Virus record (IMG/VR): IMGVR_UViG_3300002460_000047
Coordinates: 1 to 48,471 of that record
DNA from: a virus
Strand: one strand, 5' to 3'
DNA length: 48,471 nt
The notes under the pieces are model-generated. The model was not told the origin of the DNA, searched no databases, and was given only the letters and a program-made list of their open reading frames with translations. How positions within the stretch are numbered: the stretch's first letter is position 1; each line of letters starts with the position of its first letter. The translations under genes and the position numbers were made by a program. Below, piece by piece: positions 2,410 to 39,979 of the stretch.

Positions 2410-2579
2410 TTTACACCCGCCTTAATACAAATTAGATCACCACTTATAGTATGCCATAAAATACCTGACTCTTTCCAACACTCTATTCTTTCATGTTGAT
2501 GACCATTTACTTGCATATGATAAGCATAAAATATAAAGCCAAATACAAATAACATACCTATAAAATTAATATACTTCAT
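2406..2579 (-). CDS. Hypothetical small membrane protein (57 aa), below the ORF-track cutoff
   Basis: Hand translation gives MKYINFIGMLFVFGFIFYAYHMQVNGHQHERIECWKESGILWHTISGDLICIKAGVK. ATGA overlaps at both ends (2576..2579 and 2406..2409). It has a hydrophobic N-terminal helix. Confidence 0.5.
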   Translation of the reverse strand: MKYINFIGMLFVFGFIFYAYHMQVNGHQHERIECWKESGILWHTISGDLICIKAGVK

Positions 2580-2788
2580 GAATATAACTCATCTAAATCA
2601 ATATTATGACCATGTACAATTTCCCAAAATTCTTCTTTAGTCAGGGGGGCTTTTCCATATTTCTCAACTCCCCTCATATGTTCGCCAATATCATAGAGAG
2701 CCGCACACAATGCGCCTGCTTTAAGCGCTCTTAAATAGGCTTGTGCGTCCTCAGACTTGTTAAGGTTGAATTCTATTGTTATTTTCAT
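2576..2788 (-). CDS. Hypothetical protein (70 aa)
   Basis: ORF coupled to the downstream mini-ORF by an ATGA overlap. Confidence 0.55.
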   Translation of the reverse strand: MKITIEFNLNKSEDAQAYLRALKAGALCAALYDIGEHMRGVEKYGKAPLTKEEFWEIVHGHNIDLDELYS

Positions 2789-2854
2789 TATAATAACTCA
2801 CTAATAAATAATAAAATCATTAACCCACCTATAGCATAAAATAACCAATCACAT

Positions 2855-3181
2855 TCATAATTCAACATTTATATTTTCCTTTTCAAATCTGAGCCAGCAC
2901 TTTACTGTCTCTATTTCTTTTGTTACAGCATATTGAATTGTTTTAATAACTACTTTAGTATATTCAGGATTAACATTAAATACAGGGTGGGGCAATTTTG
3001 TATATAATAACTTTGGAATAGCGCCATGTATTAAATTATACCTATATCTACGATCCTCTTTTAAATTGCCTGTTTTTTTAAATCCTAATGCGTAACAAGT
3101 AAATTTTCCTTCTTGAGAATAATCAATATTCAAAGAAGAATTTTTTAATATGTCATAAATTTTATATACAAATGTAATCAT
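2855..3181 (-). CDS. Hypothetical protein (108 aa)
   Basis: The track start at 3202 is TTG. The first ATG is at 3179..3181, with AGGAG upstream. There is no convincing nuclease motif. Confidence 0.55.
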   Translation of the reverse strand: MITFVYKIYDILKNSSLNIDYSQEGKFTCYALGFKKTGNLKEDRRYRYNLIHGAIPKLLYTKLPHPVFNVNPEYTKVVIKTIQYAVTKEIETVKCWLRFEKENINVEL

Positions 3182-3329
3182 CTTTTCTAAGGCTCCTATC
3201 AATTGGTTTATATTTCGTAGTATTTTCTAATGCTTTTTGAATCCTAACACATAGAAGTAATAGTTGATGTCTAGGTATGCGTTCTAATTGTTTAATAGTA
3301 AGAATTTTTCTTTTTCTGATTAATTTCAT
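3162..3329 (-). CDS. Hypothetical basic mini-protein (55 aa)
   Basis: Hand translation gives MKLIRKRKILTIKQLERIPRHQLLLLCVRIQKALENTTKYKPIDRSLRKDDYICI. ATGA overlap with the stop of the exonuclease-domain gene (3326..3329). Confidence 0.4.
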   Translation of the reverse strand: MKLIRKRKILTIKQLERIPRHQLLLLCVRIQKALENTTKYKPIDRSLRKDDYICI

Positions 3330-4102
3330 ATCCAGTACCTCTTAGCTAAATCTATTAATTGAAGATTTACTCCAAATAACTCAATACCTAATAACTCTTT
3401 ATTTGTTGTTAATATATCTTTATTAACATGTATACCATTATACTCTATCTCAGTTGTAGCTAGCACCGCATCCATCTGTAATTCAATTAATTTAGTCATT
3501 CCAAATTCTTCAGCTTTCTTAATTTGACCTAGATACACTTGCTCAGTAGCTAACACATCATTCATCACATCCTCTAATACTAATTCTTTAGGTAAATCTG
3601 CCATATCTTTGTATTTATAAACTTCTTCTTTAGTTAAATAATAAAACAATCTATATAAATCACTTTTATTAGAATCATTCCAACAATCATCACGATTAAA
3701 TAATAAATTTTCAATATGTTTAGATCTCTCTTTCCAACCATATTTATTAACTGCAATATCTCTAAGTGCAGGATATTTATGTCTTTGCCCAGATAAAATA
3801 TATTCTGCAAGCATAGTATCCCATATTCTACCGCCTTGCTTTATCCAATCTTGTAACTGAGGAGTTTTCCATAAATATAATAAATCAAATTTAATATTAT
3901 GCCCCACTAATAAATCAATACATTGTAAATACGTCCACCATTTACATAAATGATTTGGCTGATCTTTATAAATACTTACCACTTGATTAAGCTTACATAA
4001 TCCCAAAGCAACTATCTCGTTATATTGAGGATTGGCTTTCCTCCCAAACTTTTCCTGAATCCCTGTTTCTAAATCTATAACAATATAGTTTAAATTTATC
4101 AT
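3326..4102 (-). CDS. Family A DNA polymerase, 3'-5' exonuclease fragment (258 aa)
   Basis: DEDD motifs are present: ExoI VIDLETG, ExoII GHNIKFDL and ExoIII-like VMNDVLATEQVY. The C-terminus (...IEYNGIHVNKDIL...LIDLAKRYWI) ends exactly where Pol I proteins continue into the FNxxS segment that opens the 240..1577 ORF. Confidence 0.85.
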   Translation of the reverse strand: MINLNYIVIDLETGIQEKFGRKANPQYNEIVALGLCKLNQVVSIYKDQPNHLCKWWTYLQCIDLLVGHNIKFDLLYLWKTPQLQDWIKQGGRIWDTMLAEYILSGQRHKYPALRDIAVNKYGWKERSKHIENLLFNRDDCWNDSNKSDLYRLFYYLTKEEVYKYKDMADLPKELVLEDVMNDVLATEQVYLGQIKKAEEFGMTKLIELQMDAVLATTEIEYNGIHVNKDILTTNKELLGIELFGVNLQLIDLAKRYWI

Positions 4103-4215
4103 AAAGTCAACACTGCGTAAATAAGTATTAATTCAATTAAAATAGTGTGTAAATATAGTACTACAATATGTTTACATATTATTTCTACCATCTCCCCCTC
4201 AAAAGAGTTACTCAT
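4099..4215 (-). CDS. Hypothetical hydrophobic mini-protein (38 aa)
   Basis: Hand translation gives MSNSFEGEMVEIICKHIVVLYLHTILIELILIYAVLTL. ATGA overlaps at both ends. Confidence 0.4.
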   Translation of the reverse strand: MSNSFEGEMVEIICKHIVVLYLHTILIELILIYAVLTL

Positions 4216-4364
4216 ATTCTATTCCCATTTAGTAACAATATCTTCTCTATATTCTTATAATGTCTTTGATTATTTAACTGCTTTAAATATCGCTTAGCAT
4301 CTGCAATATGTGCAAATGATCTATTTAATCTCCAGATTGATGTGCGAACAAAGTAGATATTCAT
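4212..4364 (-). CDS. Hypothetical mini-protein (50 aa)
   Basis: Hand translation gives MNIYFVRTSIWRLNRSFAHIADAKRYLKQLNNQRHYKNIEKILLLNGNRI. TAATG overlap upstream and ATGA overlap downstream. Confidence 0.4.
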   Translation of the reverse strand: MNIYFVRTSIWRLNRSFAHIADAKRYLKQLNNQRHYKNIEKILLLNGNRI

Positions 4365-4639
4365 TAATTATCAATCTCATCTAATAATTCATCAATTTCT
4401 TTATTAATTTTTATAAGCTCGTGCTCATTATAGATGCTCCATACTTGTGGAAGGCGAGTTATCAGTGTTACTTTCCGATTAATTAACTCCTCTATAGCAC
4501 TCTTTAATATAGTAGATTTTCTAGACTGCCTCAATAATGATACTTTATCACTTACCTTATCTAGTAAATCCTCTGCTTTCTTGGCCTCATCCGCCAATTC
4601 TTTAACTTCTTTTTTAAACCATTTATTTAATATATTCAT
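4364..4639 (-). CDS. Hypothetical coiled-coil protein (91 aa)
   Basis: ORF with a charged heptad-like sequence, coupled to its neighbours. Confidence 0.6.
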   Translation of the reverse strand: MNILNKWFKKEVKELADEAKKAEDLLDKVSDKVSLLRQSRKSTILKSAIEELINRKVTLITRLPQVWSIYNEHELIKINKEIDELLDEIDN

Positions 4640-4818
4640 CTGTTGCCCTTTAATATTCGCTCAACATCAAAAATCAAATGGGCTAAAGCATCTAAGACTT
4701 CAATATCCTTTATTAACTCGTCTTTAGATTTATAAGAACCGTTTGGATTTTGACAATTTGTTTTAATTAAAGTTCTTAAATCATCAGTAAAATTTATAAA
4801 ATCACCAGATTTAATCAT
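4636..4818 (-). CDS. Hypothetical protein (60 aa)
   Basis: ORF with 4-nt overlaps at both ends. Confidence 0.55.
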   Translation of the reverse strand: MIKSGDFINFTDDLRTLIKTNCQNPNGSYKSKDELIKDIEVLDALAHLIFDVERILKGNR

Positions 4819-5033
4819 AATTGTTTTCCTACATCATTAATATTATTCGTCAATGCTTCTATTCCAGATTCAATATCTTTATGTTCTGCAACTAAGTCTA
4901 TTTTACCTTCTCCCATATCTAAAGCAGTATAAATCTTATCCTTATATTCAACTAAATAAATTCCCCAAGTAAAATTCTGGATACCTTTCACATCCGTCCA
5001 ACTAACATTAAGTACTCTATTAAGCCTCTTCAT
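4815..5033 (-). CDS. Hypothetical protein (72 aa)
   Basis: ORF with a 4-nt overlap to the downstream gene. Confidence 0.55.
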   Translation of the reverse strand: MKRLNRVLNVSWTDVKGIQNFTWGIYLVEYKDKIYTALDMGEGKIDLVAEHKDIESGIEALTNNINDVGKQL

Positions 5034-5196
5034 GTTTACTCCAAATAGATTCTAAGTATTCTTTTTGATTATTAATAATCTTATTATCATTTAAACACTT
5101 ATTACATACTTCAATGTAACCTTTATTAAGAGATGTAATAACTACTGCTGATAATAAACCTGTAACACTTTTGTGACACATCTCACATTTACCCAT
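5020..5196 (-). CDS. Zinc-ribbon mini-protein (58 aa)
   Basis: Hand translation gives MGKCEMCHKSVTGLLSAVVITSLNKGYIEVCNKCLNDNKIINNQKEYLESIWSKHEEA, with CxxC...CxxC. TAATG overlap with the upstream gene. Confidence 0.45.
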   Translation of the reverse strand: MGKCEMCHKSVTGLLSAVVITSLNKGYIEVCNKCLNDNKIINNQKEYLESIWSKHEEA

Positions 5197-5432
5197 TAGA
5201 TCTTACCTCTAAGAGTAGACTTAATAATATATGTTTCTGACCTCTCTGTTCTTAAAACAGGTGTTGTTGCTGTGCACATAGCTCGCCAATGATAATCAGA
5301 TTTGTTTTTCCAACAGTGTAACCTATCCTCTCTTTTCATAGCATCGTCATAATTAGTATAAGCTTTATCAACAACCCAAGTTTTCTTCTTAACTTTCATA
5401 TCTTTTACTTTCATTACTACAAATATTTTCAT
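5196..5432 (-). CDS. Hypothetical protein (78 aa)
   Basis: ORF, basic, coupled to its neighbours. Confidence 0.55.
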   Translation of the reverse strand: MKIFVVMKVKDMKVKKKTWVVDKAYTNYDDAMKREDRLHCWKNKSDYHWRAMCTATTPVLRTERSETYIIKSTLRGKI

Positions 5433-5503
5433 ATATCCCCATTATCAATCATAGCTAACAAGATTCCTATTGCAAATCCCCCAGCAAATAACATAAAATT
5501 CAT
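5429..5503 (-). CDS. Possible 24-aa transmembrane micro-protein
   Basis: MNFMLFAGGFAIGILLAMIDNGDI. ATGA overlap with the downstream gene. The RBS is weak, so this is tentative. Confidence 0.25.
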   Translation of the reverse strand: MNFMLFAGGFAIGILLAMIDNGDI

Positions 5504-5517
5504 TAAATCTAATTCCA

Positions 5518-5742
5518 CTATTCTAATCCTTCTAGCCGTTGTTTAAGATCTAATACTTCTAATCTTAATAATTGATTCTCTTTACGTAATAAGTGTAAAA
5601 CCTCTCTATATTGATTTTTATCTTTTTTTTCACAATCATGGCACGTATCCCATTTTTCTCCATTGATAACCGTACAAGTTGTTTCATCAATAGGGCTAAA
5701 ACACAAACAACAATAACATCCTTTACCTAGAATAGTAGTCAT
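5518..5742 (-). CDS. Cys-rich zinc-binding / leucine-zipper protein (74 aa)
   Basis: CYCCLC...C...CHDC cluster followed by a heptad Leu repeat, LLRKENQLLRLEVLDLKQRLEGLE. Confidence 0.55.
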   Translation of the reverse strand: MTTILGKGCYCCLCFSPIDETTCTVINGEKWDTCHDCEKKDKNQYREVLHLLRKENQLLRLEVLDLKQRLEGLE

Positions 5743-5743
5743 C

Positions 5744-6322
5744 TTAATCTTCTTTAATTATATCAAGATTATCGTCACAACCAGGGGATACTTTTGCAGC
5801 GACACTCAATGCAACGCGCAAATCATTTTCAATATGGTCATCTTTACACATATAGTTTAATGCTAATAGGGCGCCCCAAGCCATTAATCCTCCGCAACCC
5901 GTTGCATAGGGTAAAGATAATCTATTAATATGAATACCTTTTTCATGAACACAACATGAAAATAATTCTCCAGAAATCCCTATAAGAATCTCTGAGGAAC
6001 TACAATTTTTAACTTCACTATTTACTAACATGTGTCTTTTTTGTAAACAAGCCACTACTGCATTATAAAAAGAACCCATAACATAATCAAACACAAATTC
6101 TTTTCTTCCTCTTTTAGGAATGGGCATGTATTTAACAATTAAATCACATAAATAAGCATCGCCAGTGCCTGCTAAAATAACTTTATCTCTTTTTGTAATT
6201 TTAGCCCCGGGCATTTCTTGCATCTTTTGCATACCCCAAGAGCAACGTCTATCGGCACCAAAAACTAATTTACCATCTTTATCCTTAACTACAACTATAC
6301 AAGTATTTGATGTTGGCTGCAT
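5744..6322 (-). CDS. HslV / proteasome beta-subunit-like Ntn-hydrolase peptidase
   Basis: By-eye alignment to E. coli HslV: T-CIVVVKDKDGKLVFGADRR vs TTIVSVRRNGHVVIAGDGQ, KVILAGTGDA vs KVIAGFAGGTADA, and ATGCGG vs AIGSGGPYA. A short MQPTSN propeptide precedes the Thr. Confidence 0.6.
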   Translation of the reverse strand: MQPTSNTCIVVVKDKDGKLVFGADRRCSWGMQKMQEMPGAKITKRDKVILAGTGDAYLCDLIVKYMPIPKRGRKEFVFDYVMGSFYNAVVACLQKRHMLVNSEVKNCSSSEILIGISGELFSCCVHEKGIHINRLSLPYATGCGGLMAWGALLALNYMCKDDHIENDLRVALSVAAKVSPGCDDNLDIIKED

Positions 6323-6337
6323 CGATTAATCACCTCT

Positions 6338-7978
6338 TCATTTTAGTAACTTATCTACGGTTACTAACCTACCTGTGTTTTCTATATAATACAAGTTATC
6401 CACATAGCCTGTCAAGCCTGTTATACGATTTTTTAATACTTTCACTTTTGTTTTTGTCTTTTCAATATCATCTGTCATATTACGTTCAAGCGCTATTATA
6501 ACATCGCTAAGCTGCTCAATAGCAGCACTTCCTCTAGCATCAGTCATGTGCACTTCTCTTCCTTCATCCCAAGATTGGCCTCTAAAAGGCCGTTTTAAAT
6601 GGCATACATTAATAATACTAACATTCATATCATGAGCTAATTTTCTTAAATTTTTCATAAGGATATCTATATCTTTTCTTTCTCCTTGCTCTCCCCCCAT
6701 ATCGTAAGTTATCATAGACATATGATCTAATATTAATAATTTACACCCTCCTAATTTTACCAGACATTGCAAATTATACAACAACTCATCGCCATTTAGG
6801 GACATAAAAGAAGCATCAATAAATTGCACTCTTCCAGATCTAATATACTTCTCGTAGGAGATATCGAATTTTTCTTTTAATACTTCCGGATCTTCCTCTA
6901 ATTCAAATAAAGGTAGATTATTATCTATTGCAATAAACCCTAAGCCAGATAAGCGAACGGGCTCCTCTAAATACGCTACCCCAAGTTTTAAATCTTCATT
7001 TGAATTAAGTAATTCATATCCTAATTCTCTAGTAAAACTACTCTTCCCAATTCCTGATCCCGCAAGTAAAGTATAGATACGCCCTAATTTAACACCTCTA
7101 ATGACACCATTTAATTGTGGGAGAAAAGTAATCGATAATCCTTTTGTATCTTTCTTTAACAGTTCTGCTTTAGTTGGTAATACAATTGAAGATGGTACAT
7201 ATTGTTTATAATTTAAACAATCTTTTAATAATGCATCTCTAGTACCTAACGTTAAATACTCATTCGGATCATGGTATCGCAATTCAATAGTATATATCTT
7301 TTCGGGGGTGAATAATCTAGAAGCATCTTTAAGCGCTGTAATACCTGCATCATCAGAATCAAAACAAAATATAAGTTTTTCATATTTATTTAATATATTA
7401 TAGTTGCGCTTAATTTCTGATTTAGTTTGTGAGCCTGCTCCCCCAGTTAAATAAAAAATATCTCCCTTAATAGTTCCCTCTCCAATGTCTGCTTCATATA
7501 AACTCATTGCATCTATGGCTCCCTCACAAATAATAGCTTCCTTTGCACCAATAATGAATGGGGCGTGCCCTAAAACACATTCATTACTGTTGCCTTGCCA
7601 ATAAAACTCTTTAGGGATTAATCTTACTTTTTGAGCGCACAATTCTCCATTCTTATTATAATGATTTTCTAAATGTGCTTTCTTTCCTTTTAATGTAAGA
7701 ACCTGATAATTAAATGCTCTACATGTATCTACTGATATACCCCTATCTTCTAGGCCCTCAAAATAACCAGAAGTAATTAAATTATTATTAATCATAGAGG
7801 TATCTCTAGTATTTGTCACAAAAGATGTAACATTTTGTGACATATTTTTATTACTATTGTACTCACAATTAGGTGTCTGACAACGAGAGCGCTCTTTGCC
7901 ATAGTTATCAGTCCAGAAACAAACATTATTACTGGAACCACAGTAATCACATGATTCCCTGCGGTTAGTGGTTGCCAT
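6338..7978 (-). CDS. Bifunctional primase-helicase (T7 gp4-like)
   Basis: N-terminal Cys4 zinc finger (CDYCGSS...CQTPNC), TOPRIM (ICEGAIDAMS, FDSDDAG), and DnaB-family helicase Walker A (AGSGIGKSS) and Walker B (LLILDH). Confidence 0.9.
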   Translation of the reverse strand: MATTNRRESCDYCGSSNNVCFWTDNYGKERSRCQTPNCEYNSNKNMSQNVTSFVTNTRDTSMINNNLITSGYFEGLEDRGISVDTCRAFNYQVLTLKGKKAHLENHYNKNGELCAQKVRLIPKEFYWQGNSNECVLGHAPFIIGAKEAIICEGAIDAMSLYEADIGEGTIKGDIFYLTGGAGSQTKSEIKRNYNILNKYEKLIFCFDSDDAGITALKDASRLFTPEKIYTIELRYHDPNEYLTLGTRDALLKDCLNYKQYVPSSIVLPTKAELLKKDTKGLSITFLPQLNGVIRGVKLGRIYTLLAGSGIGKSSFTRELGYELLNSNEDLKLGVAYLEEPVRLSGLGFIAIDNNLPLFELEEDPEVLKEKFDISYEKYIRSGRVQFIDASFMSLNGDELLYNLQCLVKLGGCKLLILDHMSMITYDMGGEQGERKDIDILMKNLRKLAHDMNVSIINVCHLKRPFRGQSWDEGREVHMTDARGSAAIEQLSDVIIALERNMTDDIEKTKTKVKVLKNRITGLTGYVDNLYYIENTGRLVTVDKLLK

Positions 7979-8379
7979 TAAATCCCCCTTGGCTTTAAAT
8001 CTTTATCAAAAAAGAAAGTCATAAATACGTCCTCTAAATTAGACACAATCTTTTCCTCTTCTTTAAAAGCCAGTGCAGCCTTAAGAGTTACCATATTAGT
8101 TAGAGAATAAAACTTTACGTGTAATAATTCATGAAATAATGACGCTACGGTATCTTCATAATCTTTTTGTAAATCATAATAAATCAAAATATCAGCGCAT
8201 TTATTATTTGTTAAGCTTATTGCACAACTAGTCTTATCGCTTAATTTATATTGTTTTAACTTCTTTGATTTAGAGTGCATTACATGAAAACAGATTGTAT
8301 AGGATTTTAAATCCAATAACCTAATAAAATCTTTGCTCCATAAATCTATCACTTTAGTTACTTTATTTTTAGGGTACAT
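7978..8379 (-). CDS. Hypothetical protein with HExxH motif (possible small metallopeptidase)
   Basis: LFHELLHVKF is the only recognisable feature. 1-nt overlap with the primase-helicase start. Confidence 0.3.
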   Translation of the reverse strand: MYPKNKVTKVIDLWSKDFIRLLDLKSYTICFHVMHSKSKKLKQYKLSDKTSCAISLTNNKCADILIYYDLQKDYEDTVASLFHELLHVKFYSLTNMVTLKAALAFKEEEKIVSNLEDVFMTFFFDKDLKPRGI

Positions 8380-8393
8380 TATTATTCTCTCAT

Positions 8394-8534
8394 TTATTCT
8401 AATAAGGATTCATCAAAACAATTCTCACATAGCTCTAAATCCTCGTCAAATTTGAATAATAGAAGAAATTCATCGGAAATGATTCCATCACATGCTTTGC
8501 ATCTTTGTAAAAAGATATATTCGTCTCTAATCAT
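8394..8534 (-). CDS. Zinc-ribbon mini-protein (46 aa)
   Basis: Hand translation gives MIRDEYIFLQRCKACDGIISDEFLLLFKFDEDLELCENCFDESLLE, with CxxC...CxxC. Its start overlaps the upstream micro-ORF stop (ATGATTAG). Confidence 0.4.
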   Translation of the reverse strand: MIRDEYIFLQRCKACDGIISDEFLLLFKFDEDLELCENCFDESLLE

Positions 8535-8604
8535 AAATACTCATTAATATCACTAATGACAATAACATAAGCCATATACCAAATGCTGTAATAATTATAC
8601 TCAT
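8527..8604 (-). CDS. Possible 25-aa transmembrane micro-protein
   Basis: MSIIITAFGIWLMLLSLVILMSIYD. ATGA overlap with the upstream gene stop. Confidence 0.3.
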   Translation of the reverse strand: MSIIITAFGIWLMLLSLVILMSIYD

Positions 8605-8885
8605 TTTATTTTACCCATTTCTGATATGCCTTTAAATAATTGCTGAAACTCTAAAGGATTGGGCCACACTGTTATATGTTGATCTACGGGGTTAGCCTCA
8701 CTGGTATTATATTCCAAATTCCAATGTTTATTAGATAAATAATTTACTATAAATTTCATTCGATTAATCGCAATCTCTTTAGTAAGTGCAATACCCCATA
8801 ACTCAAATGATATGGTATTATTTTCAAATGCTACTATTTGATAACCCTCATTCCATTTTTTCATGATCATTATCATAAATTTCAT
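8601..8885 (-). CDS. Hypothetical protein (94 aa)
   Basis: ORF in the early-gene chain. Confidence 0.6.
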   Translation of the reverse strand: MKFMIMIMKKWNEGYQIVAFENNTISFELWGIALTKEIAINRMKFIVNYLSNKHWNLEYNTSEANPVDQHITVWPNPLEFQQLFKGISEMGKIK

Positions 8886-8887
8886 AG

Positions 8888-9202
8888 TTAATTTAACTCC
8901 TCTTCCACCAATAGAGTTGTTATATTACCGTTCTCATATTCCTTTATTGCAAACTTAATTCGTTTTATTAATTCCCCATTTACAAGAATATCACACCTAT
9001 CGTAATTTCGTAAAGGGTTTAATTTAAAAAATTTTAAGTCACTTTGAATGGCTTCTTTTACTGTTTTTAATTGCTCTCCATATTCATTCATTAAAATGGA
9101 ATATGTTCTTTGCACACACTTTCCATCTTTATATAATCTATACAATATCTTAGACTCTTTATTGTAATTAGGTATGTTTCTTACCTTCAATTTATTACGC
9201 AT
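8888..9202 (-). CDS. Hypothetical protein (104 aa)
   Basis: ORF in the early-gene chain. Confidence 0.6.
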   Translation of the reverse strand: MRNKLKVRNIPNYNKESKILYRLYKDGKCVQRTYSILMNEYGEQLKTVKEAIQSDLKFFKLNPLRNYDRCDILVNGELIKRIKFAIKEYENGNITTLLVEEELN

Positions 9203-9217
9203 AAGAACCTCTTTTAA

Positions 9218-9592
9218 TTAGTAGTAATAATATAACTTATTGATTTTATCAAACAGCCAATCAGAAGCTTCAGGTTGCTCTATGGACGACATTAATTTAC
9301 CTAATATCTGTACTAAGCCCCCTCTATGATCGTTTAATGTAGCGAATCTATTAGCGTCTAACGCCATATAATAATCTTCCTTATAAATATCTACAATATT
9401 TTGCACTATTTGTTCATCATATAAAGCAAAACTTTCTCCAATATTATTCTGCTTACATGATGCTATCTCATTGTATTCTATACCTTTCTTCCATAAGAAT
9501 TTAGATAGTAATAACTGATTATTCCTATTCTCTTCTAAAGAATTACTATCTTTCCATATACTTATAATAAATACTGGAGAATAAATATTCAT
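9218..9592 (-). CDS. Hypothetical protein (124 aa)
   Basis: ORF in the early-gene chain. Confidence 0.6.
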   Translation of the reverse strand: MNIYSPVFIISIWKDSNSLEENRNNQLLLSKFLWKKGIEYNEIASCKQNNIGESFALYDEQIVQNIVDIYKEDYYMALDANRFATLNDHRGGLVQILGKLMSSIEQPEASDWLFDKINKLYYYY

Positions 9593-9599
9593 ATAACCT

Positions 9600-9944
9600 C
9601 TATATCATCATTAATAGATAACGAGCATATTCTTTCTGCTCGTCATTAAGATCGCTATAAGGCATTTCCCATATCACTTCTTCTTCTCTTGCCATACTCC
9701 AGTCTTTACAACCGTGATATTCTGGGTTCCTATCAAAGTCTTCTTCATATGCTTCTACTTGAGTTAAATAAACCTTATCTTCAATACTATCATTTATATA
9801 AAGACTATCTAAGTCAGAAGGGTTTCCGGCATCATGTACTAAACAATACTTCCCCTCTTCCCATTTAACTCTTTTAAATTTAACATGTGCTTTATGGAGA
9901 ATATTAGGATTATATTCACATTCATAACGATATTTATAGCACAT
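9600..9944 (-). CDS. Hypothetical acidic protein (114 aa)
   Basis: ORF with a 1-nt overlap to the upstream gene. Confidence 0.6.
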   Translation of the reverse strand: MCYKYRYECEYNPNILHKAHVKFKRVKWEEGKYCLVHDAGNPSDLDSLYINDSIEDKVYLTQVEAYEEDFDRNPEYHGCKDWSMAREEEVIWEMPYSDLNDEQKEYARYLLMMI

Positions 9945-10117
9945 TAAGAACCCTCCTCTGTAATTTTATTAACAATACCCTTCGTTAAATCAAACAATTG
10001 TTTACATTCATCACTGCAAAATTCAAACTCTCCTATGTAATCAATTGCCCACCACTCTTCTTCCCAAATAGGGTTGTATAACTGGCAAGGGCACGGTAGA
10101 ATTCTTTTAAAGGCCAT
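9944..10117 (-). CDS. Hypothetical Cys-containing protein (57 aa), first gene of the early arm
   Basis: The track start at 10126 is GTG. ATG at 10115..10117 lies 8 nt downstream of AGAGGAG. Confidence 0.55.
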   Translation of the reverse strand: MAFKRILPCPCQLYNPIWEEEWWAIDYIGEFEFCSDECKQLFDLTKGIVNKITEEGS

Positions 10118-10197
10118 TATCTTCACTCCTCTTTAATTCTTGCCTACTTTGAGAGCCTAGGTAGGCACTAGGTATAGAGGATACTCTCATACCATTA

Positions 10198-10225
10198 ATA
10201 ATACCATACCTATTAAAAAATACAA
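10198..10225 (-). promoter_or_regulatory. Candidate early leftward sigma70-type promoter
   Basis: On the minus strand, TTGTAT - 16 nt - TATTAT, about 80 nt upstream of the first early gene. It overlaps the 13-mer direct repeats. Confidence 0.3.
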
Positions 10226-10243
10226 GCCCTCTATTAAAAAATA
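10210..10243. repeat. Two copies of CTATTAAAAAATA spaced 21 bp apart
   Basis: Exact 13-mers at 10210..10222 and 10231..10243, two helical turns apart, overlapping the candidate early promoter. Confidence 0.8.
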
Positions 10244-10308
10244 TCTTTTAAGGCTATTTTAAGGTAGAGTAAAAATTATCAGTGTCTAAAATATATTTAT
10301 TTACCCCA

Positions 10309-10337
10309 TTGACAAATAAAGGATTATGGTATATAGT
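10309..10337 (+). promoter_or_regulatory. Rightward sigma70-type promoter
   Basis: TTGACA (10309..10314) - 17 nt - TATAGT (10332..10337). Confidence 0.55.
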
Positions 10338-10343
10338 TAAGTA

Positions 10344-10800
10344 TTCAGGAGCAATATACGTATAAGGCTTTACTATGGGGTATGATTGTTCACTACCTTA
10401 CATAGCATTAGATAAGACAGTCTAATGATGCAAAAGACGAAGCCTAAGGATTACGAAACAGCCTAAAATGCATACTGGGGTTAAGAGCCCTGTCATCAAG
10501 GAAAGAGAAGATGGTTAACTGTCCATCACCTATAAAGCAAGGGTAGGTAAATACAGTGGCTGATAATATTATACGTAAGATAGGATATGAAATAATCAGG
10601 AGGATAGATCACATAGTAGTAATACTGTGTCCAGGTACTAAGGGAGAAGGGAGATAGACGATAAGGTTCTTGATTCTAACTTATTGTCTACCAGATATAA
10701 CTAGCTCTAAAGCATATAAAGCTGTACATTAGTAACAAGATAAGCTATATTATATGTATCCAGGAGCAAGGTATGTCTTTAGACGTAGTATGAAAAAGAG
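10344..10800 (+). ncRNA. Candidate structured non-coding transcript / long leader (about 460 nt)
   Basis: Lies downstream of the 10309 promoter. No ORF longer than about 16 codons has an RBS. Stems: 10406..10427 (7 bp), 10611..10630 (8 bp with G-U) and 10655..10690 (11 bp with one G-U that pairs only on the plus-strand RNA). Confidence 0.3.
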
Positions 10801-10811
10801 GAGATAGGACC

Positions 10812-10925
10812 ATGTTAAGTATATGTAAAATATGTAGAGATGAGATCTATTATACTCAAAGTTATGAAAGAGTATCTGATGGTTATGCTCATGTAGGATG
10901 TTTAAATGATTTATACGAAGATTAA
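10812..10925 (+). CDS. Cys-rich mini-protein (37 aa)
   Basis: Hand translation gives MLSICKICRDEIYYTQSYERVSDGYAHVGCLNDLYED. Preceded by AAGAGGAGATAGG. Confidence 0.45.
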   Translation: MLSICKICRDEIYYTQSYERVSDGYAHVGCLNDLYED

Positions 10926-10966
10926 AGAGTTGTGTAGCTTATATCCTAGTGGGGTAGTATTTATCT

Positions 10967-11152
10967 ATGCCTATATATGATTTTCAGTGCCCTGCGTGTG
11001 GTATTGTACAAGAAGTCTTACAAAAGAACTTTAAATCAGAGATACAACTCTGTGAATGTGGCGCTGAAATGGAAAAGATTACAGGGAGAACTAGCTTATT
11101 ACTTAAGTTTAAAGGTAAGGGTTTCTATGTTAATGATTATAAGAGGAAATAG
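10967..11152 (+). CDS. FmdB-family zinc-ribbon putative regulatory protein
   Basis: MPIYDFQCPACG...CECGAEMEKI matches the FmdB / CxxC_CxxC_SSSS pattern (MPxYxYxCxxCG). Confidence 0.6.
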   Translation: MPIYDFQCPACGIVQEVLQKNFKSEIQLCECGAEMEKITGRTSLLLKFKGKGFYVNDYKRK

Positions 11153-11155
11153 TAT

Positions 11156-11248
11156 ATGTTAATGACATTAGGTTTGGTTCTTCTTACGTTTGTTGCTTAT
11201 TGTGTCGTAGCTGCGGTACTCATTTGTTGCCTTATATTAAAGAAATAG
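11156..11248 (+). CDS. Possible 30-aa transmembrane micro-protein
   Basis: MLMTLGLVLLTFVAYCVVAAVLICCLILKK, with AGAGGAAA upstream. Confidence 0.35.
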   Translation: MLMTLGLVLLTFVAYCVVAAVLICCLILKK

Positions 11249-11260
11249 AGGAATACTATT

Positions 11261-11338
11261 ATGATAACCGTTATGTGCTTAGTTTATGTATATATTGTAG
11301 TTTTATTTATTTTAGGTTATCTTATCTTTAAAGAGTGA
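11261..11338 (+). CDS. Possible 25-aa transmembrane micro-protein
   Basis: MITVMCLVYVYIVVLFILGYLIFKE, with GAGGAA upstream. Confidence 0.3.
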   Translation: MITVMCLVYVYIVVLFILGYLIFKE

Positions 11339-11626
11339 TTATTTCTGTTTTACTACAACCTCTAGATTAAGATTGTGCATATCTTTGATAAACTTCTTAT
11401 GATTACATATCTTAATATTTTTGTTTGTTACCTCTTCATGGATTACACAGTATCCGTAGTGATCTTGTAACCAACGTTTCACAATAGCCTTAGCTTGATC
11501 AGAAGATTCTAAACTACCTTCAACATGGTCGTATATTGTGATAAATACGTTATGTTCTTGATGATCTTTTTTAAGCTTAACTATTTGTAATGTAGGTATA
11601 AACCTATAATATTTGATAGTAGTCAT
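11339..11626 (-). CDS. Hypothetical protein (95 aa) with its own promoter
   Basis: ORF with AAGAGGAG upstream. It sits isolated in the control region, converging on the plus-strand mini-genes. Confidence 0.6.
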   Translation of the reverse strand: MTTIKYYRFIPTLQIVKLKKDHQEHNVFITIYDHVEGSLESSDQAKAIVKRWLQDHYGYCVIHEEVTNKNIKICNHKKFIKDMHNLNLEVVVKQK

Positions 11627-11651
11627 GATTAATACTCCTCTTTATACCTTC

Positions 11652-11679
11652 AGTATATACCTCTTATAAAAAATGTCAA
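11652..11679 (-). promoter_or_regulatory. Leftward sigma70-type promoter for 11339..11626
   Basis: On the minus strand, TTGACA (complement of 11674..11679) - 16 nt - TATACT (complement of 11652..11657). Confidence 0.5.
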
Positions 11680-11930
11680 TACCGTGTGTATTTTATCCTT
11701 TGTGTCGGATAAACATAGACTTATCCGTTATAGGGGATTGTCAACCTTATTCTATACATTGTCAACTAAATAAGTATACAATATTACTAATATTATTTAG
11801 TAATCAAGTACACATAATGGTCAATAGTTCATTCAATACGTGAACTACTGCTCAAAGTAAGTACTATCCGTTAATACCCTAATTATAGGGTTTATTGACA
11901 CACAGAAGGATATTGTGAGTGCCAATAGTG

Positions 11931-12108
11931 GTTATAACATATATAACAAAGCGGATGATATAGTATTACATATTCTATGTCGTGCCACTAATAAGATATG
12001 TATCCCCGGCACAACAGTACATACACATATATAATCATAGTATATACAATAGGTTATAACTATATGATTAATAGTGCATATGTCTACCAACTATCAATGA
12101 GTTATAAC
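11931..12108. repeat. Three copies of the palindrome GTTATAAC
   Basis: Copies at 11931..11938, 12053..12060 and 12101..12108, each followed by A/T-ATA. They flank a very AT-rich tract (12020..12050). Confidence 0.8.
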
Positions 12109-12191
12109 TATGCCCTTTAATGCTCCATTATCGCCCCTTTAGCCAGCGTAATGATGACCTAGTAGGTGACTACTAGTGCTACTAAGATCGT

Positions 12192-12221
12192 TTGACAGAG
12201 GTGATTTATTCTGCCTAGAAT
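12192..12221 (+). promoter_or_regulatory. Rightward sigma70-type promoter
   Basis: TTGACA (12192..12197) - 18 nt - TAGAAT (12216..12221). Confidence 0.45.
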
Positions 12222-12234
12222 AAGGTATTTTTAA

Positions 12235-12265
12235 CACCCCCTAGACCCCCCATAGGGGTGGGGTT
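12235..12265 (+). other. Conspicuous C-run/G-run interrupted hairpin
   Basis: caCCCCCtagaCCCCCCataGGGGtGGGG. The two C runs can pair with the two G runs. It starts about 10 nt after the predicted start site of the 12192 promoter. Confidence 0.5.
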
Positions 12266-12466
12266 GATTTGTAGTGGTATAGGTGGTCAGCTCTATACGA
12301 GGTCAAATTTTCAAGTAATCTTAAGGTTTTCTTAAGAAGAGTTTGTAATACTTGTAATCGACACATATGTCCATATTTGACATTACGAAGAGTGGGAACT
12401 AAAGGTAGTTATTGCTCGTAACTGTCAAAAAATGACAGTAAATAGAAAATATATTTAGATTACCTG

Positions 12467-12495
12467 TTGACAATATTCATTTTATCTGCTACACT
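12467..12495 (+). promoter_or_regulatory. Rightward sigma70-type promoter (candidate late-operon promoter)
   Basis: TTGACA (12467..12472) - 17 nt - TACACT (12490..12495). It is preceded by the hairpin 12422..12438. Confidence 0.55.
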
Positions 12496-12499
12496 TACT

Positions 12500-12960
12500 A
12501 CAAGTGGTGAAATATTGTACTAAAATTACTTAATAAATTTCATCATGAAGCCTCCGGTTGTGGGATAAGTCAACTATGACGCTAGGAAACGAGACTAGTG
12601 ACTCGGGAGAACAGAACCTACGGGCGTGAAGAACGCATTAGTCCCTATAAAGAGGGATATTTATAAGGGCAGATAAACGCTGCCCACTTTTAACTTAGTG
12701 GCTACCTTTATGGTAGCCATATGTATTATCTGGGGGAGATGCTTAGGGCAAGCCTAAAATTTCCTCTAATTGAGGATAACCACGAACCCACTGGTATTAG
12801 GCACGAGTTACGCTGTACTAGGTTCAGTCAGCAATCCTTCCTTAACAAAGAAGGATAGAATTACTCTATAAGTCCTGTCCTCAAGAATAATAACGTTCGC
12901 TATTCGCGAACCAAAGATAACACTAAGTGTCACTTTATGTAACTAAATGGGTAAAATAAT
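12500..12960 (+). ncRNA. Candidate structured leader / ncRNA upstream of the late operon (about 460 nt)
   Basis: No RBS-preceded ORF. Perfect stems at 12667..12685, 12699..12719 (8 bp), 12834..12856 (7 bp) and 12895..12911 (6 bp). G/C content is visibly higher than in flanking genes. Confidence 0.3.
12667..12691 (+). terminator. Terminator-like hairpin inside the late leader
   Basis: GGGCAG-ataaacg-CTGCCC followed by acTTTT. It lies between the 12467 promoter and the first late gene. Confidence 0.35.
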
Positions 12961-12969
12961 AAGAATAAT

Positions 12970-13374
12970 ATGCTCCCAATCTTAGAAACTGCATTAGGAT
13001 CTCTTTTTAAAGGAATAGTCGACAAATTCTTCCCTGATAAATCAGAATCGGAAAAACGCCGAATTGCTGCTGAAATGGCACGCGAAGCACAGCAATTTGA
13101 GCTTTTAAAAGGGCAGTTAGACATAAATAAGGTAGAGGCCGCTAATCCAGATAAATTTATATCTGGCTGGCGCCCCTTTTTAGGTTGGGTGTGTGGATTT
13201 GGTTTAGCATGGGCATGGGTTATTATGCCCATTTTTAATTGGTTAATAGTCATATTAGGATTTCCGGCACCAGAGTTGCCAAAATTTAATACCGAAGAGT
13301 TAATTGCTATGTGTGTCAGCTTATTAGGGTTAGCAGGCTACCGCACGGTTGAAAAAATAAAAAGAAGAGATTAA
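12970..13374 (+). CDS. Holin, 3-TM gene-transfer-agent type (PF11351-like)
   Basis: The N-terminal amphipathic region, INKVEAAN...FISGWRPFLGWVCGFGLAWAWVIMP and the hydrophobic segments match the remembered family pattern (N..EA...F.aGWRP..GW). Confidence 0.5.
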   Translation: MLPILETALGSLFKGIVDKFFPDKSESEKRRIAAEMAREAQQFELLKGQLDINKVEAANPDKFISGWRPFLGWVCGFGLAWAWVIMPIFNWLIVILGFPAPELPKFNTEELIAMCVSLLGLAGYRTVEKIKRRD

Positions 13375-13378
13375 AGCA

Positions 13379-13813
13379 ATGTTAAAATATAAAGAAGAAT
13401 TTCCAGAGCAATTGCTAAAACTTATGCAAGAAGGTAAGAGTTTAACTCAAGTAGCCGCAGAATTTAAAATTAATAAAAATACGATTACCGAATGGTCTCA
13501 TACTCACCCTGAATTTAAAGCAGCTAAGGAATTAGGTATACTTTTAGCAGAAGCTTATTGGGAAGACGTGGGTCAAAAAGGTCTTAAAGGTATTTTAAAT
13601 AAGTTTAACCCGATGGCATGGTCGTATTACATGAAATGTCGATTTAAAGAAGATTGGGTTGAAGCTAATAATCAGAAGATTGAACTTATAGACGGTGTTA
13701 AAAAGCTCTCTAAAGAAGAGTTAGATAAGAAAATTGACGATGCATTAAAGGTTATTATCGCAGCTAAGAAGAAAACCTATTCTTCTGGCTCTGGCGGAAC
13801 ATTTTTAGAATGA
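13379..13813 (+). CDS. terS: Terminase small subunit
   Basis: N-terminal HTH (GKSLTQVAAEFKINKNTITEWS). Positioned immediately upstream of TerL. Confidence 0.65.
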   Translation: MLKYKEEFPEQLLKLMQEGKSLTQVAAEFKINKNTITEWSHTHPEFKAAKELGILLAEAYWEDVGQKGLKGILNKFNPMAWSYYMKCRFKEDWVEANNQKIELIDGVKKLSKEELDKKIDDALKVIIAAKKKTYSSGSGGTFLE

Positions 13814-14052
13814 ATTTCGATTCTTTAGCAGTCAGATATTATTATTGTGAACATTGCAAAGATATCAATGAATATATTGTTGATACGGGCATAATTAAGA
13901 GATTAGAATATCATCATAAACGATTATTCATCTTTCCTTGCACTAAATGTGGCGATCCTAGAACTTTAATGATGTCTACTGAAAAAGACTTTATTAAAGA
14001 ATACTTAAAAAGAGACCCTAGAAGCACAGTTAAAGGGTTAAAAAATGAATGA
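13810..14052 (+). CDS. Zinc-ribbon protein (80 aa)
   Basis: CEHC...CTKC. 4-nt overlap upstream and 8-nt overlap downstream. Confidence 0.55.
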   Translation: MNFDSLAVRYYYCEHCKDINEYIVDTGIIKRLEYHHKRLFIFPCTKCGDPRTLMMSTEKDFIKEYLKRDPRSTVKGLKNE

Positions 14053-14794
14053 TCTTCAAGATTTAAGTAGAAGCGATAAAGAAGAATTACTACTTGTATT
14101 AGAAGAAAACAATAGAAGGGAAAGAGAAAATAAGATCTTTAGTTATTACCCCGAGACTGGTAAATTAAGTAGGGATGCATATAAAAAACACATGATGTTT
14201 TTTAAAGCAGGTAAGCATTATAAAGAAAGAGCGTTAATAGCTGCAAATAGATCTGGTAAATCTTTAGCTGCATCCTTTGAGATGGCGTTACATTTGACTG
14301 GTTTATACGATAAGTTTCCGTGGTGGGAAGGTAAAAGATTTGATGAGCCTATCCAAGCGTGGTCGGTAGGAACAACTCATGAGACTACTAGGGATATTTT
14401 ACAAAGATATCTTTTAGGCCCAAGACATGATTTAGGTACAGGAATGATACCTAAAGATTGTATTATTAGAGTAACGTCTCAGCCAGGTACACAAGATGCT
14501 ATTCATGATGTTTATGTAAAACATGCTTCTGGAGGAACAAGTCAACTTTCCTTTAAAGCTTATATTCAAGAAGTAGAAGCATTTATGGGAACTTCTATGC
14601 ATGTTATTCATTTAGATGAAGAGCCCCATAGAACACAGATTTATTCAGAGTGTTTAACAAGAACTATGACTACCAATGGAATAATTATGTGTACATTTAC
14701 TCCTGTGCAAGGTTTATCAGACGTAGTATTGAGTTTTTTACCTGGTGGACAATTCCCCCCTGATGGTCACGGAGAGGTTAGAGTTTATGAGTAA
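14045..14794 (+). CDS. terL: Terminase large subunit, ATPase fragment (249 aa)
   Basis: Walker A ANRSGKS, Walker B VIHLDEEP and coupling motif CTFTPVQG. The ORF stops right at the ATPase/nuclease domain boundary. Confidence 0.85.
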   Translation: MNDLQDLSRSDKEELLLVLEENNRRERENKIFSYYPETGKLSRDAYKKHMMFFKAGKHYKERALIAANRSGKSLAASFEMALHLTGLYDKFPWWEGKRFDEPIQAWSVGTTHETTRDILQRYLLGPRHDLGTGMIPKDCIIRVTSQPGTQDAIHDVYVKHASGGTSQLSFKAYIQEVEAFMGTSMHVIHLDEEPHRTQIYSECLTRTMTTNGIIMCTFTPVQGLSDVVLSFLPGGQFPPDGHGEVRVYE

Positions 14795-15152
14795 TTTTTT
14801 TATTAAAAAAGAAGGTGAACCTATACAATCTTTAGTACAGATTCTTACTAAAAAAGCTCAAGAGGAATTTAATGTTTATTGTAATTTAAATGACATTTAT
14901 ATTAATCCAGAAATAGAAAATAATAGTTCTGCAGTCACTATAAATAAAATTAACTATCCAAATATAACTTATGCTGTAGGTGTTATGCACCCTATGGATG
15001 TAGAAACTGCAGTTAAAGCGTTAATTAAAGATTCATTACAAGATAAAAAACAAATTAGTATTAGAAAACCCATATCAGTAACTCAAGATGGTGATATATT
15101 AGGTAAATATACAATATATTGTCGTTTCGCAGACATATCGAGTCTTAGGTAA
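14787..15152 (+). CDS. Hypothetical protein (121 aa) inserted between the two terminase fragments
   Basis: The ATG overlaps the TerL-N stop (ATGAGTAA). It is very AT-rich and has no nuclease motif I recognise. Confidence 0.5.
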   Translation: MSNFFIKKEGEPIQSLVQILTKKAQEEFNVYCNLNDIYINPEIENNSSAVTINKINYPNITYAVGVMHPMDVETAVKALIKDSLQDKKQISIRKPISVTQDGDILGKYTIYCRFADISSLR

Positions 15153-15164: not shown

Positions 15165-15917
15165 GTGGCAAAATGGGTAATTAACCTCACTTGGGAAGAT
15201 GCCCCACACCTTTCAGAAGAGGATAAGAAAACTCTTCTCGAAAGTTATGCACCTAATGAGAGAGACGCAAGAAGTAAAGGATTACCAGCTTTAGGAACAG
15301 GTGCAATATACCCAATTCCAGAATCTGATATAGTAGTTCGCCCTTTTGAGATTCCGAAAGAGTGGCCTAGAGCTTACGGAATGGATGTAGGCTGGAAGAA
15401 AACAGCAGCACTTTGGGGTGCTTATAATGAACAAGAAGATACTTGGTATTTATACTCCGAGTACTATAGGGGTTATGCAGAACCCTCAGTTCATGCAGAT
15501 GCTATAAAACAGAGAGGCCCTTGGATCGCAGGCGTTATAGACCCTGCTGCTAGGGGGAGAGGGCAAAAAGACGGTTTAAGTTTATTAGATGAATATTCTA
15601 AATTAGGTTTAGAGTTATCTTTAGCAAATAATTCAGTAGAGCCTGGGATTTTAGAATGTTATCAAAGATTATCAACAGGAAGATGTAAGATTTTTTCTAC
15701 TTTACAACATTTTCTTGCAGAATATAGAATTTACCGCAGAGAAGAAAAGAAAAGCGGTGAGATAAAAGTAGTTAAATCACATGACCATTTAATGGATACA
15801 TTTAGATATTTAATAATGACTGGAATGGATGTTATGCAACCTTATCCTATGGATGAAGATGATGATGTTTCAGATACGATATATTCAACTGGTCGCTCAG
15901 AAGTATGTGGATATTAA
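15165..15917 (+). CDS. terL: Terminase large subunit, nuclease fragment (250 aa)
   Basis: GTG start 7 nt after AAGGAG. INLTWEDAPHL, GMDVGW (RNase H-like Asp), VIDPAA and HDHLMDTFRY are the usual C-terminal nuclease-domain motifs. Confidence 0.85.
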   Translation: MAKWVINLTWEDAPHLSEEDKKTLLESYAPNERDARSKGLPALGTGAIYPIPESDIVVRPFEIPKEWPRAYGMDVGWKKTAALWGAYNEQEDTWYLYSEYYRGYAEPSVHADAIKQRGPWIAGVIDPAARGRGQKDGLSLLDEYSKLGLELSLANNSVEPGILECYQRLSTGRCKIFSTLQHFLAEYRIYRREEKKSGEIKVVKSHDHLMDTFRYLIMTGMDVMQPYPMDEDDDVSDTIYSTGRSEVCGY

Positions 15918-18291: not shown

Positions 18292-18591
18292 ATGTTAGTC
18301 CCTTTAAGTAATAAAGTTATTATTAAAGTAGGTAAAATTGAAGAGAAAGTAGGGTCAATTTATATGCCCTCCGAAATCGCTGATAGAGAACAATTAGCAA
18401 AAACTACAGGTAAAGTAGTATCAATGGGCCCGTTAGTATTTGCTGATGAAGTACAAAATCCCATTAAAATAGGAGATACTGTATATTTTCTTCGTTATGG
18501 TGGAATGCAACATATAGAAGAAGAAAATGGTGAGAAAGTTGATTATAGAATTGTAAATGATATAGATATAGTCGCAATAAGTAGAGGTTAA
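18292..18591 (+). CDS. groES: GroES/Cpn10-like co-chaperonin
   Basis: By-eye alignment to E. coli GroES: PLSNKVIIKV vs PLHDRVIVKR, GKVVSMGP vs GEVLAVGNG, IKIGDTVYF vs VKVGDIVIF, and DIDIVAI vs ESDILAI. 99 aa. Confidence 0.65.
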   Translation: MLVPLSNKVIIKVGKIEEKVGSIYMPSEIADREQLAKTTGKVVSMGPLVFADEVQNPIKIGDTVYFLRYGGMQHIEEENGEKVDYRIVNDIDIVAISRG

Positions 18592-23176: not shown

Positions 23177-23206
23177 GGGGAGGAGTATATCTCCCCACTA
23201 ATTTTT
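23177..23206 (+). terminator. Rho-independent terminator
   Basis: GGGGAG-gagtatat-CTCCCC followed by actaaTTTTT. Confidence 0.55.
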
Positions 23207-38439: not shown

Positions 38440-38443
38440 TTCT

Positions 38444-39225: not shown

Positions 39226-39284
39226 TACAGAGCACCTTTTTATAAAAGTATAATATTAATCAATAAGTTACGTACAAATCATTT

Positions 39285-39978: not shown

Positions 39979-39979
39979 C

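Follow-up and report, generated by a model that had tools for sequence, protein, structure and literature searches.

A conserved structured leader RNA and terminator-like hairpins in the control region ahead of the late genes of a metagenomic phage

Organization of the control region

Positions 11627-12969 of the IMG/VR virus record IMGVR_UViG_3300002460_000047 form a 1.3-kb segment of a phage genome that has no long open reading frames (ORFs) and is placed between a leftward gene specific to this phage and the late operon of about 25 kb. The record was analyzed over its whole length of 48,471 nucleotides (nt), referred to here as the window, and all positions are those of the window unless a relative is named. 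The element of main interest is RNA-B, an untranslated leader predicted to start at the late promoter P_B in the right-hand third of the segment, together with the terminator-like hairpins that it carries; a second leader, RNA-A, follows promoter P_A outside the segment. The phage genome of about 48.4 kb was assembled as a circle with overlapping ends, has a G+C content of 33.7% and is carried in identical copies by several bioreactor-type metagenome assemblies. Its nearest isolated phages show a portal identity of only about 38%. The leftward genes occupy 37855-48471, continue into 1-10126 and encode DNA polymerase A, a T7-like primase-helicase, exonucleases and a PrkA/DUF444/SpoVR trio. The rightward genes from 12970 encode a three-transmembrane holin, the small and large terminase, an SU10-type portal and structural proteins. 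With the leftward genes reaching to 10126 and the rightward ones running from 12970, the interval 10127-12969 is the hub where two transcription units, of about 20-25 kb, diverge. Upstream of P_B there are a zinc ribbon of the FmdB type with 61 amino acids (aa), a 37-aa CxxC peptide and a 95-aa ORF without family. The original prediction, made from the sequence of the window, had recognized no RNA polymerase, sigma factor or N/Q-like protein, and scans of about 40 ORFs against PHROG, Pfam and NCBIfam detected none of these, nor any other antiterminator family. The zinc-ribbon protein had no informative match among PDB sequences, and a tRNA/tmRNA search was negative.

The segment was described in the original prediction as free of ORFs of at least 60 aa between 11627 and 12929, rich in hairpins and promoters, richer in G+C than its surroundings and a source of candidate structured RNAs. 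The lack of ORFs was confirmed, the longest having 56 aa on the + strand and 52 aa on the - strand. Every stem listed earlier was found in the sequence. There are 19 perfect stems of at least 6 base pairs (bp) with loops of 3-9 nt in 11627-12969, against 3.4±1.9 expected; none of 500 dinucleotide shuffles reached 19, and this count is the highest among all stretches of 1343 nt in the genome (median 4). Both promoters were also confirmed, TTGACA-18-TAGAAT at 12192 with 11/12 matches and TTGACA-17-TACACT with an upstream TG at 12467 with 10/12. Ten sites genome-wide have a perfect TTGACA and at least 10/12 matches, five of them within 10309-12495. The total of promoter-like sites with at least 9/12 matches (21 against 15.5±3.2 expected) exceeds chance only slightly. 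Terminator-like sites number 7 in 10000-13500, against 1.6±1.7 expected. The observation on the segment is real and above chance. At 35.4%, the overall G+C content of the segment exceeds the 33.7% of the genome only marginally, and it reaches 40-43% in local peaks; the statement that the rest of the genome is almost gap-free does not hold, as there is a second ORF-free stretch at 10127-10811.

A large non-coding RNA of the GOLLD or ROOL kind had also been considered, but no resemblance was seen. The whole genome gave no match to Rfam 15 at gathering thresholds, and relaxing the search to E values up to 10 over 10000-13200 produced two chance-level matches only, Termite-leu (16.5 bits) and SNORD48 (14.3 bits).

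Conservation in related phages

Relatives were sought through searches for homologues of the holin and of TerL, followed by contig look-ups. The informative ones are L035 and L036, the latter being the same phage as L037 and L038, and all comparison rests on three sequences. Their holins are 72% (L035) and 57% (L036) identical to that of this phage, and both have the same gene order, with a zinc-ribbon gene, 0.95-1.3 kb without ORFs and the holin gene. Two conserved non-coding blocks were detected by blastn and nhmmer, one after the promoter at 12467, inside the segment, and the other after the promoter at 10309, outside it. In the left two-thirds of the segment, conservation in L035 and L036 is not above background. 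Thus, of the homologous intergenic region looked for, the last 500 nt or so (about 12446-12969) are conserved in two relatives and the rest is not. Judged by this conservation, 11627-12969 is a composite control region and not one large RNA, with only its right-hand third conserved; a structured RNA does follow the 12467 promoter, as had been supposed, but the idea of one RNA spanning the whole segment was not upheld.

Wider searches did not extend this group. Gaps of 0.9-1.4 kb without ORFs occur in the distant relatives L039-L044 too; nhmmer profiles and the covariance models R1 and R2, run on 38 loci that include them, found no members besides this phage, L035 and L036. Neither the region nor 20 kb of late genes had a BLAST match in 50,697 phage records, and in the IMG/VR relatives L001-L029, found via holin and TerL, the region has no nucleotide similarity. 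Exact-pattern scans for the RNA-A and RNA-B cores in three public collections returned nothing from viral contigs and only chance matches, in high-G+C contigs, from metagenome and genome contigs.

The late promoter and the leader RNA-B

P_B has counterparts in both relatives, TTGACA-17-TATACT in L035 and TTGACA-16-TATAAT in L036, and its A/T-rich upstream element is also found at P_A (10288-10315). The leader expected from P_B has folding z scores of -4.6 for 12502-12735 and -3.8 over its whole length. Three helices, P1, P3 and P4 (Table 1), begin at +9, +84 and +146 in this phage, at +6, +76 and +141 in L035 and at +10, +84 and +139 in L036. P1 occupies about 41 nt and P3 21 nt; linkers of 34 nt and 41 nt separate P1 from P3 and P3 from P4. 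The stem of P1 has an entirely different sequence in each phage, with 7 of 9 pairs changed on both sides. P3 lies within a nearly invariant core, and its A-U and G-U pairs trade places between phages. Because of this G-U swap the pairing is kept only in the + strand RNA, which fits an RNA and not a DNA palindrome. P4 is replaced by GCCUU...AAGGC in L035, where 2 of 5 pairs are changed on both sides. In the RNA-B alignment, which was anchored by hand on the helices, 60 of 60 pair cells are standard and 9 pairs are changed on both sides, whereas sliding the 3' partner by 1-3 columns gives pairing of about 40%. Single-sequence folds independently recover P1, P3 and P4 in all three phages. Hexamers resembling a -10 element were seen by eye in the first 25 nt (TATAAT at about +12 in L036), with no single conserved position.

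In six-frame tblastn comparisons, the conserved blocks of RNA-B give similar scores in several frames and on both strands, and the homologues carry stop codons; on this comparison the blocks are non-coding. It is highly improbable that small conserved ORFs or stop-recoded genes explain the segment. A 17-codon ORF at 12576 (MTLGNETSD...), whose first differences from L036 fall at third codon positions, is the best case for them, but in L035 it meets a stop at codon 6, and it has no Shine-Dalgarno sequence, unlike the strong ones of other genes. Several reading frames on either strand give equally good translations of the blocks, and read with the standard code the late genes are intact.

The leader ends at the holin gene, whose A/U-rich start region has no Shine-Dalgarno sequence and is conserved at 1611-1626 of L035 and 8282-8297 of L036. 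The start regions of other genes inspected have strong GGAG-type sites, unlike the holin start.

Terminator-like hairpins and a model for late gene control

The original prediction put a terminator-like hairpin after the last promoter and ahead of the first late gene, and this was borne out: a hairpin at 12667-12685 is directly trailed by ACTTTTAAC, and another lies at 12698-12720. Both relatives have terminator-like hairpins after P4, ending at +235 in L035 and +201 in L036, with strong U tracts in both. The energies of these hairpins range from -9.5 to -15 kcal/mol. By eye, and as a lead only, an alternative pairing of the antiterminator-versus-terminator type was noted, of the 5' strand of P4 to the 5' side of T1; the sequences of this phage and L036 would permit it, and that of L035 would not. 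No + strand promoter with at least 9/12 matches was found between T2 and the holin start. The claim that the late operon must pass terminator-like hairpins is supported, since there is no other strong rightward promoter ahead of the holin gene.

Phages that rely wholly on the host RNA polymerase must still delay their lysis and packaging genes, and to our knowledge the mechanisms of this delay are largely undescribed outside the lambdoid phages. The architecture found here, with a consensus promoter, a folded leader, terminators and then holin and terminase genes, points to post-initiation control. We propose, with a probability of about one half, that the late genes are controlled in this way, P_B and the terminator-bearing leader RNA-B forming a unit like PR'-tR' of lambda that has to be read through. 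The phage would depend on the host RNA polymerase, and the strong, constitutive-looking P_B would fire. The polymerase would next run into one or two intrinsic terminators, which end at a distance of 183-235 nt from the start. As P_B looks constitutive and there is no other strong promoter before the holin gene, the late genes would be expressed only upon terminator readthrough. P1, P3 and P4 may be the cis site that enables it, acting on the polymerase alone or with a small phage protein, for example the zinc-ribbon proteins encoded upstream. Antitermination by RNA only, in the manner of put, is one possibility within this model. The promoter, the helices and the terminator-like hairpins are observed at conserved positions, and from them we infer the transcription start, the termination itself and the antitermination switch.

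Several points weigh against this model. The comparative evidence consists of three distinct sequences, and as the alignment was anchored on the helices, the RNA-B covariation counts lean to structure and are supportive, not decisive. Folding of the leaders is only weakly better than in shuffles for L035 and L036, with z scores of -1.4 and -1.6, and outside the promoter and the 26-nt core the identity of the leaders is 47-59%, barely over background. T1 and T2 of this phage have poor U tracts, and the family scans described above recognized no antiterminator protein. The promoter and terminator rules applied are of the E. coli type, and those of the host may differ. Finally, the palindromes of the spacer, described below, are not accounted for by the model.

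Some of the same observations suit a passive leader, in which RNA-B would be an ordinary long 5' untranslated region (UTR) that stabilizes or processes the late mRNA, with leaky attenuators setting a fixed level and no switch. A hairpin at the extreme 5' end is a classic mRNA stabilizer, and P1 sits in that place; the weak U tracts of T1 and T2, the lack of an identified regulator and the low conservation outside the core also agree with it. We consider this explanation unlikely, though worth keeping in mind, because the 26-nt core and its loop sequence are kept although the holins are only 57-72% identical, because the terminators found at this position in both relatives are strong and canonical, and because a strong promoter on lysis and packaging genes without temporal control would be unusual. 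The unit from P_B to T1 or T2 could also yield a stand-alone, trans-acting small RNA of about 180-235 nt, the late genes being expressed by incidental readthrough. It is indeed a discrete promoter-to-terminator unit with conserved helices, and the late promoter of lambda likewise makes a short terminated RNA. There is, however, no alternative late promoter, the place of the unit directly before the late operon is conserved, the RNA is without a known target, and pairing between RNA-A and RNA-B in crude duplex folding was no better than in shuffles, so that we regard a small RNA as improbable. The leader may thus act alone (like put), with a small protein (like conAn or N) or only as a stabilizing UTR.

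Other loci show related layouts. In L040 (971-1770) a perfect consensus promoter (TTGACA, TATAAT and an upstream TG) is followed by a 770-nt ORF-free leader with a terminator-like hairpin at 1552-1568, and in L043 (8410-8664) a promoter of the same description precedes a 220-nt ORF-free leader. Neither leader has sequence homology to RNA-B. The L040 layout is analogous and non-homologous; it fits processive readthrough without demonstrating it. The same can be said of a G+C-rich bidirectional terminator-like hairpin at 23177-23196, in the middle of the late operon, which lies in the gap after a 548-aa late gene and has no strong promoter after it.

Table 1. Features of the control region and of the start of the late operon (positions in the window)
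Feature	Position	Strand	Remarks
Promoter P_A	10309..10337	+	TTGACA-17-TATAGT; conserved in L036
RNA-A, conserved structured leader	10344..10811	+	About 450 nt, after P_A; three-way junction at 10366-10444
Promoter of the 95-aa gene	11652..11679	-	TTGACA-16-TATACT, 11/12; promoter scan
Palindrome-rich spacer	11680..12190		Hairpin counts and repeats; sequence not conserved
Promoter-like site	12192..12221	+	TTGACA-18-TAGAAT; overlapped by palindrome 12206-12223; not conserved in relatives
G+C-rich hairpin	12238..12272	+	C-runs and G-runs, -14 kcal/mol, tail UUGAUUUGU; terminator- or insulator-like
Perfect palindrome	12421..12439		ACTGTCA-N5-TGACAGT; centre about 72 nt upstream of the predicted P_B start
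Late promoter P_B	12446..12495	+	A/T-rich upstream element; TTGACA-17-TACACT with upstream TG (core 12467-12495); conserved in relatives
RNA-B, untranslated late-operon leader	12502..12969	+	About 470 nt, predicted start; nhmmer against L035 E = 1e-6; profile matches
P1, 5'-end hairpin	12505..12545	+	Stem of 9-10 bp; 9-13 bp across phages
Conserved core	12576..12601	+	ATGACRCTRGGAAANNAGACTAGTGA, 26 nt, nearly invariant; contains P3
P3	within 12576..12601	+	6-bp stem, 12580-12585 with 12595-12600; conserved 9-nt loop GAAANNAGA
P4	12642..12657	+	5-bp hairpin, UCCCU-AUAAAG-AGGGA
T1, terminator-like hairpin	12667..12694	+	-9.5 kcal/mol, then ACUUUUAAC; ends at +183
T2, 9-bp hairpin	12698..12730	+	-15 kcal/mol, weak U-rich tail; ends at +218
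Holin-gene start region	12957..12972	+	A/U-rich, AUAAGAAUAAUAU-AUG, without Shine-Dalgarno; conserved
Holin gene	12970..13374	+	GTA_holin_3TM, three-transmembrane; first late gene, then terminase, portal and structural genes

The phage-specific spacer

The left part of the segment, 11627-12466, has a different character. Its spacer contains 14 perfect palindromic hairpins, against 2.7 expected, and folds better than shuffles on both strands (z = -5.0 and -3.4), while the spacers of L035 and L036 have one such hairpin each and no folding excess (z = +0.07 and -1.65). Several short repeats were found. TTATCC occurs three times in alternating orientation at 11693-11727, adjoining the leftward promoter, and ATTGTCAAC occurs twice, at 11739 and 11760. 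There is also an 8-bp palindrome, GTTATAAC, present three times within 180 nt (11931, 12053 and 12101) and with no other copy in the 48-kb genome. L036 has one related site, CAATAGGTTATAGG, at the place matching these. The spacer stems have abrupt ends and show no G-U preference on either strand in a strand-asymmetry comparison of hairpin extensions, which was uninformative.

As the palindromes and the folding excess have no counterpart in the relatives, we read them as phage-specific DNA-level sequence and not as conserved RNA. The spacer probably acts at the DNA level, through putative operators or other protein-binding sites, and is possibly linked to the inserted leftward gene. The promoter at 12192 and the stems upstream of it, which had been taken together with the late promoter, are likewise specific to this phage. 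The perfect palindrome at 12421-12439 is a possible regulator site. The hairpin at 12238-12272 looks like a terminator or insulator that closes the upstream unit; C/G-run hairpins are also found about 185-205 nt upstream of P_B in L035 and L036, and L036 has a terminator-like site at 7528-7545.

A reading of the segment, above all of 11627-12466, as a replication origin, a pac site, genome termini or an operator array, with all hairpins being DNA palindromes, draws on these data. The palindromes are perfectly Watson-Crick with abrupt ends and no G-U extension preference, the spacer folds well on both strands, GTTATAAC is confined to it, the TTATCC repeats adjoin a promoter, and the terminase genes lie just downstream and T7-like replication genes beside it. 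For the segment as a whole we find this reading rather improbable, since the palindromes differ from one another and are absent in the relatives, there are no iterons and no long A/T-rich unwinding element, termini are not mappable from an assembled contig, and the compensatory and G-U changes in RNA-B point to RNA.

The leftward 95-aa gene (11339-11626, - strand) has its own strong promoter, is placed between rightward units and has no counterpart at that position in the maps of L035 and L036. A homology of this ORF with a 100-aa ORF of L036 was rejected, as only 13 residues matched (E = 0.002 in a single comparison). RNA made from the 95-aa gene would be antisense to the 3' half of RNA-A as well as to the zinc-ribbon genes, and could end at a terminator-like hairpin on the - strand (10510-10527), which is itself a phage-specific insertion within RNA-A.

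The second leader RNA-A

The conserved block outside the segment corresponds to RNA-A. Its 5' domain is 67-72% identical between the phages, against 57-68% for the holin gene. The three-way junction, which is kept better between the phages than the protein genes beside it, was recovered by RNAalifold without structure constraint from a hand-made, helix-anchored alignment, in which 60 of 60 pair cells are standard and 4 pairs are changed on both sides. RNA-A is the better conserved of the two leaders, with covariation support that is thin with three sequences. At its 3' end there are a conserved Shine-Dalgarno sequence and an AUG UCU UUA mini-ORF of variable length, and the genes that follow encode small zinc-finger proteins including the zinc ribbon of the FmdB family. 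No Rfam family matched RNA-A. The two leaders were also compared as possible paralogues, and this was rejected, since the upstream promoter element is the only part in common.

It is doubtful that, in a phage clade lacking a recognizable transcription factor of its own, both leaders together time the two divergent giant operons, RNA-A as a riboswitch-like three-way junction over the zinc-finger proteins and RNA-B as a put-like element that, alone or with a zinc protein, makes the host RNA polymerase resist termination over 25 kb. If true, processive antitermination centred on RNA would have a new class, found outside the lambdoid phages. If not, the analysis is still useful, since most of the "1.3-kb structured RNA" is a spacer specific to one phage. 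Should either leader modify RNA polymerase or sense a signal, RNA-based antitermination would extend to environmental podovirus-like phages and provide a compact testable element.

Other genes of the phage

Further genes of the phage were also noted. The large terminase is encoded by two ORFs, an ATPase (14045-14794) and a nuclease (15165-15917), with a 135-aa ORF without known family between them (14745-15152). In the relatives the two halves are adjacent or parted by a different small ORF, and nearly all of the TerL-N homologues listed have about 250 aa; from these the split looks clade-wide. A Cpn10/GroES-like co-chaperonin gene (18292-18591), conserved clade-wide, lies directly after the portal region. 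DNA polymerase A is apparently split as well, into ORFs 240-1589 and 3326-4102 on the - strand, about 1.7 kb apart and with small ORFs between. On the same strand are the trio of PrkA kinase-like, DUF444 and SpoVR-like genes (43138-47650), a gene for a Mom-like DNA modification protein and one for a nucleoside 2-deoxyribosyltransferase (37855-38439 and 39306-39734). The last two together suggest modified DNA bases.

Comparison with known systems

In lambda, late control involves the PR' promoter, a short terminated "6S" RNA, the terminator tR' and the antiterminator Q, and the late genes begin with the holin, followed by terminase. Q control further involves a Q binding element in the promoter and a sigma-dependent pause close to it, at a -10-like element early in the transcribed region. 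The locus described here is similar in having a strong, apparently constitutive late promoter, a terminator-like hairpin about 200 nt downstream and a long untranslated leader, all of them also present in L035 and L036, and in its late operon, in which the holin gene comes first and the terminase and structural genes follow in one long unit. It differs in that the family scans of the upstream and early ORFs found no Q-family gene just upstream of the late promoter, and in that the conserved element of RNA-B is in the RNA, at +75 to +160, while the Q binding site is at the promoter. The genome is also unrelated, being of a lytic, podovirus-like type with an SU10-type portal and T7-like replication genes. 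Antitermination of the lambda N and nut type uses a boxA-boxB site in the RNA and N, a small arginine-rich protein. The short hairpin P3, whose purine-rich loop is conserved, is loosely similar to boxB, and a conserved boxA was not seen; the sole arginine-rich small ORF (75 aa, 38444-38671) has no family and is far from RNA-B.

The put element of phage HK022 has about 70 nt that form two adjacent stem-loops downstream of the promoter, and causes protein-independent antitermination in cis via the zinc-binding domain of the polymerase beta' subunit (PMC9378689). As in put, a structured cis RNA just after the promoter could be enough for the host polymerase to get past terminators, no dedicated protein being needed, and the lack of a recognizable antiterminator in this phage would fit such a mode. 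Compared by architecture, RNA-B is unlike put in having three separated hairpins over about 160 nt with terminators immediately after them. The conAn system of Gram-positive conjugative plasmids is reported to be bipartite, a large leader RNA and the small ConAn1 protein, encoded where a very long operon begins, together giving processive readthrough, and its leader RNA to have an essential G+C-rich region and an inverted repeat (PMC8191782). By that description the two systems may be likened in their large leader RNA element, small protein and very long operon, although conAn belongs to a different kind of mobile element. RNA-B shares with GOLLD and ROOL the property of being a phage-encoded structured non-coding RNA, but it is a leader, only about 470 nt long and poor in conserved helices, while GOLLD and ROOL are multi-domain RNAs of 600-800 nt. 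Taken together, these comparisons suggest a unit that works like the late control of lambda without Q, the architecture of put or a match in Rfam, so that RNA-A and RNA-B would be undescribed RNA elements, so far from three metagenomic phages, within a concept that is itself familiar.

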